In this document: positions 18,150 through 21,823 of the stretch, piece by piece
Numbering within the stretch: position 1 is the first letter of the stretch
Layout: each line of letters opens with the position of its first letter
NCBI GenBank assembly: GCA_018238155.1
Contig: JABCTZ010000022.1
Coordinates: 1 to 64,000 of the forward strand
Direction of reading: 5' to 3'
DNA length: 64,000 nucleotides
From: Candidatus Heimdallarchaeota archaeon
GTDB taxonomy: Archaea; Asgardarchaeota; Heimdallarchaeia; JABLTI01
Position numbers and translations under genes: made by a program
Notes under the pieces: generated by a model
Told to the model about the DNA's origin: nothing
Databases searched by the model: none
Seen by the model: the letters and a program-made list of their open reading frames with translations, nothing else

Positions 18150-18517
18150 AAAGAAAAAAAGAAGAGAGAAAAGACTCACAAAAGAGTCTTTAGAGATATA
18201 ATTTAAGAGCACCATTGTTGATAACTGAATGCGCAGCTGCTAATCGAGCAATGGGAACTCTGAGAAGAACAACTGACATAATCCAAACCAGTGCGATAAC
18301 AGAAGCCAATGGATTTAGGTTCTCCACCTTGCTCACCACAGATACCTATCTCGATATCATTTTTGCCTTTGTGGCCTTCTTCGACCATTATCTCCATTAA
18401 CTTACCAATGCCATTTTGTTCAATAGAAACAAAAGGATCAGCATCAAGGATGCCAAGATCTAAATAGAGATTGATGAATTTGCCAGCATCATCTCGAGAG
18501 AAGCCAAGACCCATTTG
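18150..18517 (-). pseudogene. ppdK 3'-end fragment 1 (2-nt frameshift near its end) plus the ppdK downstream hairpin
   Basis: QMGLGFSRDDAGKFI...GICGEQGGEPKSI...LDYVSCS. The flank aaagactcacaaaagagtcttta is also found at 38368-38390. Confidence 0.92.
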
Positions 18518-18570
18518 TGGAGGATTACAAAATTTAATATTAAAAAAGAAAAAACTAAAAAATACTGAAG

Positions 18571-20157
18571 CTATTTCCGTTTCTTATAAAAAATGAGTAC
18601 GACGAGTAGCATGACAAATATGAATGCTAGGAACCCGTATAAGAATTTATATTGAGCAGAGGAGGGTTGGAGGGGCTCAATAAATACCGTAACAAAACCT
18701 TCACTCATTACATACCTATTGTCAAAAGCATTTTGTTTAGGGAAATCAGTTGAACGTGTTGTGCCCGTGACATAACAATACCCATATTCTGTAACTGCAA
18801 TACCAGACCCTTCATCTGAAAGAATTCCGCCAAGATAGGTGCTCCAAAGTAGAAAACCGTCAGAAGAGTATTTAGTAACAAAAGCGTCGTACTCACCACT
18901 TTTGGAACTATCATAAGTGTTCTTCGTGGGAAAATTGGTGGAACAAGTCTCACCTGTCACATAGCAACTGCCATCACTGGTCGCAGCAATAGCAAAACCA
19001 CGATCAACACCATTCCCGCCAAGAAAAGTACTCCAGAGAAGAGAGCCATCAGTAGCAAACTTGACAACAAACGCATCACCCCATATATCAAGAGTATTAT
19101 TATAAGCATTCAGGGAGGGAAAATCGATTGAACCAGTAAAGCCTGTCACATAACAACTGCCATCCCTTACAACAGTAATACCACAAGCTTCATCCCACCA
19201 AACCCCGCCAAGATAGGTGCTCCAGAGAAGAGACCCTTGTGTAGAAAACTTAGTAATAAAGGCATCCAAATCACCATTTGATGTACTATCATAAGCGTTT
19301 TGTGTAGGAAAATCAGTTGAACCAGTAATACCCGCGACATAACAGATCCCATCCTCAGTAACAGCAATACCTTGCCCATGATCCACTCCACTGCCTCCAA
19401 GGTAGGTGCTCCAGAGAAGAGCACCAGCAGCAGAGAACTTGGTAACAAAGCCATCAAGAGACCCACCATTAAAAGTACTATCGTACGCATTCTTGGTGGT
19501 AGGAAAATTATTTGAATTAGTATATCCCGATACATAGCAACTACCATCGCCAGCAATAGCAATACCATACGGATCTTCATTACTACTCCCGCCAAGGTAA
19601 GTACTCCAGAGAAGTGAGCAATTTGATGAGAATTTAGCAACAAAAATATCTTCCTTACCGCTGAAGGTGCTATTAAAGGCATGCAGGGTGGGGAAATCGC
19701 AGGAATTAGTAAAACCTATGACATAACAACTGCCATCAGCAGCAACAGTAACATCATACCCATAATCCCAGTTATTCCCACCGAAGTAGGTACTCCACAG
19801 AAGTGAACCATTAGCAGCAAACTTCATCAGAAAGGCGTCTGTATCACCATTATAAGTGCTATCAAAAGCACTCTTAGTAGAGAAATCACTCGATTCAGTT
19901 AATCCTGTGACATAACAACTGCCATCATCAGTGACAGCAACACCTTTCCCACTATCCTTTGCACTGCCTCCAAGGAAAGTACTAAAATGTAACGTGAGAT
20001 TGGTTGCAGATACAGCAGCACTTGAAACGGGGAGATTAAAGCCGGTAAAAGGAAAGACCTGTCGAGGGATTGAAAAAAATAACACACTTATGAGAAGGGC
20101 AATGTTTAAACAATTTGCTACCAAACGCACTTTTTTTTCCAAGATGAATGACACCAA
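18571..20157 (-). CDS. SBBP-repeat beta-propeller surface protein with C-terminal TM anchor
   Basis: About 7 repeats of WSTYLGG...D.G.GIA...DGSCYVTG.T.S.DFP...A.D...DAFV.KF. Confidence 0.9.
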   Translation of the reverse strand: MVSFILEKKVRLVANCLNIALLISVLFFSIPRQVFPFTGFNLPVSSAAVSATNLTLHFSTFLGGSAKDSGKGVAVTDDGSCYVTGLTESSDFSTKSAFDSTYNGDTDAFLMKFAANGSLLWSTYFGGNNWDYGYDVTVAADGSCYVIGFTNSCDFPTLHAFNSTFSGKEDIFVAKFSSNCSLLWSTYLGGSSNEDPYGIAIAGDGSCYVSGYTNSNNFPTTKNAYDSTFNGGSLDGFVTKFSAAGALLWSTYLGGSGVDHGQGIAVTEDGICYVAGITGSTDFPTQNAYDSTSNGDLDAFITKFSTQGSLLWSTYLGGVWWDEACGITVVRDGSCYVTGFTGSIDFPSLNAYNNTLDIWGDAFVVKFATDGSLLWSTFLGGNGVDRGFAIAATSDGSCYVTGETCSTNFPTKNTYDSSKSGEYDAFVTKYSSDGFLLWSTYLGGILSDEGSGIAVTEYGYCYVTGTTRSTDFPKQNAFDNRYVMSEGFVTVFIEPLQPSSAQYKFLYGFLAFIFVMLLVVLIFYKKRK

Positions 20158-20348
20158 AGAAATGATTATCCATATTTCTTAAAAGATTTGTGACTATTAT
20201 TTTACATGCTGTTTTGTAACTCAAAAAATACTATTTATTATAAATAGCCTGATTGTGTTTAAAATGGTACAATTTTCAAACAGATGAATAATATAAGAAA
20301 AAGTAAAAAAAAGGATGTTAAAAACATTTATTTCCTTTCTTTATCCTA

Positions 20349-21269
20349 TTAATTAAACCACACATAGCTTGAGAAATCTCTTTTCTGCGGGTATCGATTA
20401 GAACAGTAATTACTAGCATGATTGAAAGCTGCGACGGCAGTACCTCCATCGGATATTTTGTCAAAGAAGCGATAAGAGAATTCCCCTTCAATATAACTGT
20501 ATCCACTACGATATTTTGCTTCATGTGTTTCATTAGTGGAAGACATTGCTAAATAGGGACTAGCTGCAAAATCGTCTGCCCAATCGCCAGAATAACACGA
20601 ATCAACAAGAAGACATTTCCTAGGTGCATCCCAAGCGTTCATATAACCTCGGAATTCATTGGAGTAAACATTATATGTTCCTTCACCTGCCTTAAAATCT
20701 ATATAAGAATGATTTCCATCGTTTAATCCATGTCCCATAATATAGACAAAAATAGTATCCACATAAAGTTCATAGTTATCTATAGTTTGACAAGCTGAAG
20801 CAACATTCAAACTATTTTCAAATTTGAAAAACTTTGTATAGCCTTCTCCTCCTAATATGCCTATGTACCTATTAATTGTATTTGGATGACAGGCATTAGT
20901 TACATAGAAAAAGACAGCTATTTTTTCAGGTTTTGCTTCAAGTTCGAAATTATAGGTTCCTCCAGTATAGACTTTTTTTGTTTCAGGATAATAGCGTGTA
21001 TTCGAAGAAGCAGATAAATAATACGGTGAGTTGCCACTAAGTGTCACAGAGATACTATAATAACCTTCACTATTTGTTGTAGTAAATCCTAAGAAATTAT
21101 AGTATGAATCAGAAAGCGTTACACTGGCACCACTGACAGGATTGCCTTCGTTATTTTCAACATACCCACTAAAGGTTGTTGCACCTTGTACTTTAACAAA
21201 AGTTGTCATCATTCCAGCTAAGACTATGACTAAAACAATAAAACTAATTCCTTTTTTCAATTTAAACAT
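20349..21269 (-). CDS. Secreted protein: carboxypeptidase-regulatory-like domain + caspase-fold (clan CD) peptidase
   Basis: Signal peptide; GYV...GNPVSGASVTL...TTTNSEGYY; VYIMGHG and LVDSCYSG His-Cys dyad. Confidence 0.82.
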   Translation of the reverse strand: MFKLKKGISFIVLVIVLAGMMTTFVKVQGATTFSGYVENNEGNPVSGASVTLSDSYYNFLGFTTTNSEGYYSISVTLSGNSPYYLSASSNTRYYPETKKVYTGGTYNFELEAKPEKIAVFFYVTNACHPNTINRYIGILGGEGYTKFFKFENSLNVASACQTIDNYELYVDTIFVYIMGHGLNDGNHSYIDFKAGEGTYNVYSNEFRGYMNAWDAPRKCLLVDSCYSGDWADDFAASPYLAMSSTNETHEAKYRSGYSYIEGEFSYRFFDKISDGGTAVAAFNHASNYCSNRYPQKRDFSSYVWFN

Positions 21270-21488
21270 TTTTCCTCCTCCTTACTGTCATTAAACTAAA
21301 AAATGTTCAATTAAATATATATGAAATAATTATTTAAATCTTTTTAAAAAATTAGATGCTTTTAATAAAAAATGAATAGCTTATACCAAACATTTGTATT
21401 ATATATTGAACAATTAAATGAAAAAATTAAAAAACAAAAAAAAAGAAAAAATAAATCTCTCATTAAAGATTCACTAATTTTATATGAT

Positions 21489-21809
21489 TTACTTTCGAGC
21501 ACTGTTATTGATAACAGCATGTGTAACAGCAAAACGAGCAACGGGAACTCTGAGGGGAGAACAACTAACGTAATCCAAACTAATGCGATAACAGAAATCA
21601 ATGGATTTTGGTTCACTACCTTGTTCGCCACAAATACCTATCTCAATATCTTTGTTACCTTCATGACCACCTTTGACAGTCATTTCCATAAGTTGACCAA
21701 TACCATCTTGTTCAATGGAAACAAAAGGATCTTCGTCAAGAATGCCAAGATCAAGGTATAAACCAATGAACTTACTAGCATCATCTCGAGAGAAGCCAAG
21801 GCTCATTTG
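21489..21809 (-). pseudogene. ppdK 3'-end fragment 2 (321 bp, frame intact)
   Basis: QMSLGFSRDDA...DYVSCSPLRVPVAR.A...AVINN; colinear with 38397-38717. Confidence 0.93.
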
Positions 21810-21823
21810 ATGGAGGAAGTATA

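Follow-up and report, generated by a model that had tools for sequence, protein, structure and literature searches.

Introduction

Mobile open reading frames (mORFs) of fungal mitochondria, which encode LAGLIDADG or GIY-YIG endonucleases, bring a foreign C-terminus into the host gene, and the native C-terminus is retained downstream (PMC3630166). Their host genes include atp6, atp9, cox2 and nad3 in Glomus and atp6 in Allomyces macrogynus (Beaudet et al. 2013, PMC3630166), and the same article cites Allomyces work from 1994. Here, we describe a comparable organization at the 3' end of the ppdK gene in a 64,000-nt stretch of the genome of a Candidatus Heimdallarchaeota archaeon (assembly GCA_018238155.1, contig JABCTZ010000022.1, positions 1 to 64,000; this whole stretch is referred to as the window). 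The window contained an intact ppdK and two 5'-truncated copies of its 3' end, fragments 1 and 2, and a 16.5-kb island with nuclease genes was located between the intact gene and fragment 2. We propose that the ppdK 3' end may be a landing site of mobile islands, each with a gene end of its own. In the literature searched, no paper connected ppdK of Asgard archaea to homing or integration. An earlier note, made from the sequence of the window alone, had suggested two precise insertions at one site, each of which swapped the C-terminal part of the ppdK product.

Several other systems were relevant for comparison. Phage 21 and e14, which integrate into the icd gene of E. coli, as well as tRNA-targeting elements, rely on a tyrosine integrase and a short identical core. 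In the intronless homing of T-even phages, a free-standing endonuclease gene lies beside the conserved gene that it presumably cuts. Finally, Asgard archaea carry aCas1-TnpB loci, in which aCas1 was predicted to be a transposase (Altae-Tran et al. 2023, PMC10691335).

Duplicated and exchanged ends of ppdK

In the following, G000 designates the genome of the window and G001-G048 the comparison genomes; labels such as C6 or C19 are contigs of the named genome, and L labels are loci of relatives. The coordinates of the features are collected in Table 1.

Besides the intact ppdK, fragments 1 and 2 were the only copies of this gene in the 4.08-Mb G000 assembly. Both were copies of the ppdK 3' end on the same strand as the intact gene, both matched PEP-utilizers_C in Pfam, and fragment 1 was frameshifted by a 2-bp deletion. 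As the earlier note had observed, the fragments were more alike (77-80% identity) than either was to the intact ppdK (65-74%). The note had also assigned a different C-terminal allele to the fragments. The difference itself was confirmed, but the odd allele was that of the intact gene. Namely, the motifs QM.LGFSR and EIGICGEQG represented the usual allele of the genus, and the intact gene of G000 had QTSIGFSR and EFGICGEHG instead. Fragment 2 shared 82% of its amino acids with the intact ends of G003 and G004, compared with 67-70% for the copy in use in G000. Relative to the same gene in relatives, the C part of the intact G000 ppdK was 67-77% identical and its N part 75-79%. The ratio of nonsynonymous to synonymous substitution rates (dN/dS) was 0.09-0.12 for fragment 2 against the G003 and G004 ends; therefore, fragment 2 diverged while it was part of a working gene.

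Swapping of the ppdK C-terminal part was supported by a comparison of G003, which had an empty ppdK site, with G005, where the site was occupied. Their ppdK proteins were 93% identical over residues 1-792 but only 77% over residues 793-900, whereas the control pair of G003 and G004 gave 84% and 87% for the same two parts. At the DNA level, the G003 and G005 genes were 92% identical up to approximately column 2310 of the alignment and 75% identical beyond it. Separate trees of the two parts, which the earlier note had proposed as a check, were incongruent. The N-part tree placed G003 and G005 together (support 100/100), and the C-part tree joined the G005 end with the intact end of G000 (91/93). 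The same pair of nuclease genes adjoined both of these ends. Moreover, the approximately unbiased (AU) test rejected a clade of the G000 intact end and fragment 2 (p 0.0135). Thus, the drop in identity, the incongruent trees and the AU test supported the view that each event can swap the C-terminal ~108 residues.

The limits of the exchange were less regular than had been suggested. The drop in identity between G003 and G005 started ~60 nt 5' of the fragment limit in the G-T-N-D-L motif, and such an upstream start of the exchanged tract in G005 would fit resection and co-conversion at a break. Thus, the idea of repeated insertion at the ppdK 3' end was supported, but the word "precise" was too strong. 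Similarly, the break had been placed at the Gln codon, but homology of the fragments to ppdK actually began 6-11 nt 5' of this codon, between the Asn and Leu codons of G-T-N-D-L (at ~21815-21817 in the case of fragment 2). No core was shared by the three copies at the 5' limit of the fragments. On the minus strand, TCCTCCA (18518-18524) and TCCTCCAT (21810-21817) were indeed located immediately 5' of CAAATG. However, this motif was not an element-end signal, since it consisted of the Asp-Leu-His codons of ppdK and the intact genes of congeners had CTCCAT at the same codons; the sister-species gene read GATCTCCATCAAATG, with the codons AAT GAT CTC CAT CAA ATG (N-D-L-H-Q-M). Counting both strands, TCCTCCA occurred 12 times in the window.

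Fragment 1 was therefore a mosaic, the 5' part of which, as far as the conserved 16-mer GAGTTCCCGTTGCTCG, was closer to fragment 2 and the remainder to the intact gene. The 16-mer was common to the intact ppdK and fragment 2 and had one mismatch in fragment 1. A stretch of 127 nt (18142-18268) that comprised the last ~45 coding nucleotides and ~65-80 nt of the flank was 84% identical to positions 38340-38466 at the intact ppdK. The hairpin in this flank (8-bp stem and 6-nt loop, with a T-rich run next to it) was identical to that behind the intact gene, in agreement with the earlier note. The same flank type was also present behind the intact ppdK of G004 and G005.

Fragments in relatives of the genus

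Similar fragments were found in other members of the genus. There were six of them in G004 and three each in G010 and G006; an intact ppdK was also present in G004 and G010, and none was found in the G006 assembly. Four fragment lengths could be distinguished: those of ~325 nt began in G-T-N-D-L, those of ~160 nt at EIGICGEQ and those of ~125 nt at EPKSIDFCY, and the shortest were ~95 nt long. The earlier note had counted variable breakpoints against its own reading, and they were present, given that relatives also held the ~160, ~125 and ~95-nt fragments. It had likewise counted against itself the case of fragment 1 being a simple copy of fragment 2; with 77-80% identity and different flanks, fragment 1 was not such a recent local copy. 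The earlier observation was real but confirmed only in part, and its interpretation was in part supported.

The long fragments of G000, G004 and G006 had 5' starts that were at most ~5 nt apart, although the sequences upstream of them were unrelated (a phosphoesterase stop codon, the flank of an SBBP gene or a 240-nt spacer). The fragment limits coincided with the two most conserved ppdK motifs, and homing sites typically fall on conserved motifs. At the empty sites of G003 and G001, ppdK was followed by another flank type and a conserved gene row. The same row was located behind the most distal fragment of G004; therefore, this fragment was the original native end. The layout of intact gene, nuclease genes, cargo and displaced end was repeated in G002, G004 and G005, and G004 had it as several tandem copies.

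Within a genome, the copies were patchwork (for example, the G004 fragments C110a and C110b were identical over 75 nt), and the order of units was rearranged in contigs of relatives. Both of these features would suit a recombination hot spot by ppdK that worked through local duplication and illegitimate joins and needed no dedicated machinery. We considered this explanation highly improbable. A hot spot of this kind would not account for a 5' limit that was the same within ~5 nt beside unrelated sequence in three species, for fragment limits on conserved motifs or for the nuclease genes at the site in several genera, and fragments 1 and 2 were only 77-80% identical and had unlike flanks.

Two further ideas about the fragments were dropped. 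The ATG of fragment 2 overlapped the stop codon of the upstream gene, and the fragments of G004 had TAA at this place; fragment 2 was not retained as an expressed small protein given this TAA and given that the junction was not found in relatives. Orphan C-terminal toxin cassettes of the rhs/cdiA type were rejected as well, because ppdK encodes a housekeeping enzyme and there were no partner immunity genes.

As a separate observation, the gene next to the intact ppdK of G004 (L031:14554-15366, on G004:C74) was a Cas6 homologue; in this genome, therefore, the island slot nearest to ppdK may be taken by a CRISPR-Cas locus. Still, the flank behind the ppdK stop codon was of the G000 and G005 type.

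The island between ppdK and fragment 2

At its ppdK-proximal end, the island started with a gene for an 893-aa protein that was convergent with ppdK. The C-terminal domain of this protein was predicted to have a PD-(D/E)xK nuclease fold, as residues ~660-800 of its AlphaFold2 (AF2) model matched AF1548, Card1, Can2 and XisH with probability 1.0. Members of the same gene family adjoined a ppdK end in G002, G004 (twice) and G005. Next to it was a LAGLIDADG-HTH gene with two LAGLIDADG motifs, which were invariant in the family alignment and had both Asp residues kept in G000. At the opposite end, the final stop codon of the operon with the Cas1-like gene abutted fragment 2, and the Cas1-like operon ended beside a ppdK fragment in every case examined. 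For the 1212-aa Cas1-like protein, the top Foldseek matches were the casposase 6opm (E 8e-5, probability 1.0) and more than 20 Cas1 structures; the pLDDT of the model was 70-90 in the Cas1-like domain and 55 overall. The E/H/D set of its C-terminal domain was invariant in the family alignment. Neither the 893-aa nor the 1212-aa protein had a sequence match in Pfam, NCBIfam or PDB, and the leads on both came from fold searches only. Both end modules of the island recurred beside ppdK ends in G002, G004, G005 and G006.

The repeats flanking the ppdK island were 325 nt long and 65-72% identical, and no inverted repeats above shuffled controls were found at the island ends. The direct-repeat layout and the tandem arrays resembled arrays of att sites, and the mosaic junction of fragment 1 was located at the conserved 16-mer. 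These features could point to a tyrosine recombinase, supplied in trans or since lost, with an attachment site that included the ppdK 3' end, as in the case of phages 21 and e14 at icd. Like those elements, the islands carried a substitute 3' end, left a displaced pseudogene end at the far junction and could form tandem arrays. However, they differed by having no integrase gene, no identical core at the 5' limit of the fragments and variable exchange limits. A search with PF00589 detected no tyrosine recombinase in the 18-41 kb part of the window, and no recombinase gene was present in any examined island, in contrast to integrative elements, which have the integrase gene within the element. 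The whole G000 genome had only two PF00589 matches, at C8:50428 and C19:71490. Moreover, the three copies shared no identical core at the fragment limit, and the exchange limit of G005 was upstream of it. We therefore regarded a tyrosine recombinase as improbable. In its favour, the second of the two matches (C19:71490-71813) was located in a 525-aa frame on the ppdK contig, 7.5 kb past the end of the window.

Lone LAGLIDADG_2 genes after ppdK in other genera

Outside the genus, a LAGLIDADG gene of another kind was associated with the ppdK end. In G048, the intact ppdK end was followed by a single 363-aa open reading frame (ORF) with a LAGLIDADG_2 domain and then by a displaced end of 168 nt, which began at the GEQGGDP codons. 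A homologue of ~365 aa was located directly after ppdK, in convergent orientation, in G016, G017, G018, G026 and G029, and the same position in G042 was taken by a 976-aa protein with a C-terminal LAGLIDADG_2 domain. The post-ppdK position accounted for 7 of the 15 best LAGLIDADG_2 matches in the class (including G048 and G042). Between genera, the homologues were 37-48% identical.

The pair of G029, which had the LAGLIDADG_2 gene, and G027, which did not, revealed the associated exchange. As far as the GICGEQGG codons, which lay 150 nt before the stop codon, the identity of their ppdK genes was at least 99%; beyond this point it was ~78%, and the sequences past the stop codon were unrelated. 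The G048 fragment started at the same place as the exchange limit of this pair. So an exchanged ppdK end accompanies the lone LAGLIDADG gene, and the exchange starts at the place where the displaced fragment does; G048 represents an independent minimal case. The pattern in the G029/G027 pair resembled the co-conversion of flanking markers in the intronless homing of T-even phages; in contrast to the Heimdall loci, the phage cases leave no duplicate end and carry little cargo. A BLASTP comparison of the LAGLIDADG-HTH protein with the ~365-aa LAGLIDADG_2 proteins gave no significant similarity, and the two families were therefore treated as separate lineages.

Several additional details of these loci were recorded. 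In the single-contig G017 and G018 (L078 and L079) and in L080-L082, the LAGLIDADG_2 gene was 20-40 nt past ppdK, and the genes of G017 and G018 were 95% identical. Short ppdK 3' fragments were located before a conserved pair of genes for 316-aa and 371-aa proteins in G035 (C1, L074:3331-3429) and G041 (C5, L073:1278-1412). The same pair stood behind ppdK and the LAGLIDADG gene in G026 and G029. The intact ppdK of G035 was on a separate contig, where it adjoined a gene for a 1872-aa protein.

Related modules at tRNA genes and a possible role of the Cas1-like protein

The island genes had relatives elsewhere in the genome. The LAGLIDADG-HTH family was multi-copy, with 12 matches in G000 and 23 in G004, and the full 1212-aa family was confined to this genus among the 83 genomes of the class. 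In G000, paralogous modules on C11 and C17 had the order LAGLIDADG-HTH, Cas1-like, helicase, DUF1998 and phosphoesterase, and partial modules were present on C6, C43 and C42. The C6 module directly followed tRNA-Leu(tag), and a 42-nt repeat of the 3' end of this tRNA closed it. On C43 and C11, the modules had 40-87-nt copies of a different tRNA 3' end at their boundaries. Overall, the flanking repeats at the tRNA sites were 40-87 nt long and 75-90% identical.

Giant proteins of 1284-1395 aa were also noticed (G000:C17:167746-168330; C17, C50 and C27 of G004; G006:C9; G001:C246). Their similarity to the 1212-aa protein was confined to the Cas1-like C-terminal region, and they therefore represented a wider fusion family in the genus.

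Casposons target the 3' ends of tRNA genes and the 3' end of the aEF-2 gene, which would favour a different explanation of the islands. Namely, the Cas1-like protein, an Asgard aCas1, might act as integrase or transposase for the island, with the helicase/DUF1998 proteins and the phosphoesterase as helpers. The repeats of ppdK and tRNA 3' ends would then be target duplications or attachment sequences, and the C-terminal swaps would have arisen later, through ordinary homologous recombination of occupied alleles between strains. The Cas1/casposase fold with the invariant E/H/D residues in the C-terminal domain, the multi-copy module, whose copies lay between directly repeated tRNA 3' ends, and the operon that always terminated beside a ppdK fragment also spoke for this possibility. 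So did a published prediction, in which aCas1 was named as the likely transposase of loci with flanking repeats (PMC10691335).

Nevertheless, we judged this explanation, the main rival of the homing scheme described below, rather unlikely. A Cas1-family integrase was predicted to be encoded in the element, as in casposons and aCas1 loci, but other features of such elements were missing. No terminal inverted repeats above shuffled controls were found at the ppdK, C6 and C43 elements. The repeats were 40-325 nt long and 65-90% identical, unlike the short exact target duplications of 14-15 bp, and Pfam scans of island ORFs of at least 150 aa detected no PolB or TnpB. Moreover, a target duplication cannot confer a foreign end on the intact gene, and G048 and G029 had the same replacement with a lone LAGLIDADG gene and without a Cas1-like gene, the family of which was absent outside the genus. 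The ppdK islands were similar to the Asgard aCas1 elements in having a giant Cas1-like protein, multi-copy repeat-flanked loci in Heimdall genomes and the same set of accompanying genes (helicase, DUF1998, phosphoesterase and LAGLIDADG-HTH). They differed in that TnpB was not seen, an 893-aa PD-(D/E)xK protein was encoded at the ppdK-proximal end, the target was a protein gene with its end replaced rather than a tRNA gene, and the repeats reached 325 nt.

Proposed mechanism of gene-end replacement

By analogy with the fungal mORFs, we favoured nuclease-started homing with replacement of the gene end, an explanation whose chances we considered to be about even. According to this scheme, an island nuclease would cut an unoccupied ppdK allele in a conserved motif, which in this genus would be G-T-N-D-L. 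The candidate nucleases would be the LAGLIDADG-HTH protein or the adjoining PD-(D/E)xK protein. The break would be repaired off an occupied allele; the imported end would complete ppdK, the island would come next, and the old end would be left behind as a 5'-truncated fragment. Fragment 2 would then be the end displaced by the 16.5-kb island with its LAGLIDADG-HTH, PD-(D/E)xK and Cas1-like genes, and fragment 1 would be an older displaced end that had begun to decay. A displaced fragment could further serve as the right-hand homology arm for additional spread, which would explain the mosaics, and the fragments would be patchwork because conversion tracts differ in length.

The duplicated ends, the replaced C-terminal alleles and the common 5' limit of the long fragments occurred together with nuclease genes at the ppdK end. 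We infer that a nuclease cut was the starting event, and the same applies to which nuclease made it. Fragment limits on conserved motifs and exchange tracts that started 0-60 nt from them pointed indirectly to the predicted cleavage.

The locus shared the main features of endonuclease mORFs. Homing-type endonuclease ORFs were located behind the host gene, beside its 3' end (in G000, and as a lone ORF in G048), an imported C-terminal segment completed the ppdK frame, and the native end was duplicated downstream, where the displaced copy resembled relatives more than the present ppdK end did. Exactly this three-part form was found at the G048 locus. On the other hand, the Heimdall loci were on an archaeal chromosome, had ppdK as the target and, in this genus, had expanded to an island of 16.5 kb whose cargo was defence-like and Cas1-like. 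Here, the nuclease gene was convergent with ppdK rather than fused to it in frame, and the displaced ends piled up in tandem.

Several results weighed against homing with gene-end replacement. In the window, the LAGLIDADG-HTH gene was 3.3 kb away from ppdK, with the 893-aa gene in between, and an in-frame TAG (35138-35140) ended it at codon 455 of ~536; the 81 codons past this TAG still aligned with the C-terminus of the G005 homologue. Since the LAGLIDADG-HTH family was multi-copy and occurred with Cas1-like genes at tRNA sites, it may serve another role. G010 had its fragment array without a nearby LAGLIDADG or Cas1-like gene, and no displaced end above shuffled controls was found in G016, G017, G018, G026 and G029. 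The AU test of a grouping of G003 with G005 on the ppdK C part gave a p of only 0.087. Finally, insertion of one island after another leaves the 1.6-kb unit with fragment 2 unexplained (see the last section).

A wider scenario of homing with gene-end replacement on Heimdall chromosomes would combine several of these elements. A nuclease cut in a conserved motif of ppdK, an important gene, would install an island of up to 16 kb, with its Cas1-like module and defence cargo, together with a cut-resistant end, and two unrelated LAGLIDADG lineages would have converged on ppdK. As part of the same scenario, repeated invasions by rival nuclease variants would stack displaced ends and diversify the catalytic C-terminus of the enzyme. 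We put this joint claim forward tentatively, as somewhat less probable than the basic scheme of homing with gene-end replacement.

If true, the islands would show on an archaeal chromosome what has so far been described chiefly in fungal mitochondria. They would also provide a concrete answer to the question of site choice by large islands that lack an integrase, among them the predicted Asgard Cas1-like elements. Moreover, species exchange the catalytic C-terminal domain of this enzyme of central metabolism horizontally, and such C-terminal exchange bears on single-gene phylogenies of Asgard archaea. With empty sites in G003 and G001 and intact nuclease copies in G004 and G005, the idea is directly testable.

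Features of the locus and the unit containing fragment 2

Table 1. Positions of ppdK copies, island genes and related modules in G000 (window coordinates unless a contig is named)
Feature	Position	Strand	Remarks
Intact ppdK	38397-41099	-	900 aa, one open frame; Pfam PPDK_N, PEP-utilizers, PEP-utilizers_C
Last ~108 codons of intact ppdK	38397-38723	-	Divergent, probably imported allele
Flank after ppdK stop	38340-38396	-	Hairpin 38368-38389, then T-rich run
893-aa protein gene	35749-38430	+	Convergent with ppdK, 34-nt overlap of its stop
LAGLIDADG-HTH nuclease gene	33773-35386	+	Pfam LAGLIDADG_3 and HTH_3; convergent on ppdK
Cargo: TPR, NYN-LOTUS, EEP nuclease, HEAT-CHAT	28647-33648		Pfam
Operon: Cas1-like 1212-aa protein, DEAD helicase, MZB/DUF1998, metallophosphoesterase	21824-28510	-	Pfam, Foldseek
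Fragment 2 (ppdK 3' end)	21489-21827	-	Open 112-codon frame; genus-typical allele
Fragment 2 terminator and CarboxypepD_reg gene (20349-21269)	20240-21488	-	Pfam; absent from close relatives
SBBP beta-propeller gene	18571-20157	-	Directly follows phosphoesterase gene in relatives
Fragment 1 (ppdK 3' end)	18203-18524	-	2-bp deletion near 18265/18266
Flank of fragment 1	18142-18202	-	Hairpin and T-run as behind intact ppdK
Paralogous modules	C11:80556-90408; C17:163821-173039; C6:39858-47965; C43:2980-13305		

Fragment 2, its own terminator and the CarboxypepD_reg gene formed a 1.6-kb unit (window 20198-21833), the left edge of which was exactly the fragment limit. This unit was absent from G006 and from contigs that came from two metagenome studies; there, the phosphoesterase gene was joined directly to the SBBP gene, and a piece similar to fragment 2 was located after SBBP. 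These metagenome contigs represented the arrangements of relatives rather than the source sample and were silent on excision in the G000 strain.

The SBBP gene itself contained at least five internal 189-nt repeats (18717-19983) that were 63-72% alike. Its protein was 66% identical to the G006 orthologue, and the adjacent genes were 85-91% identical.

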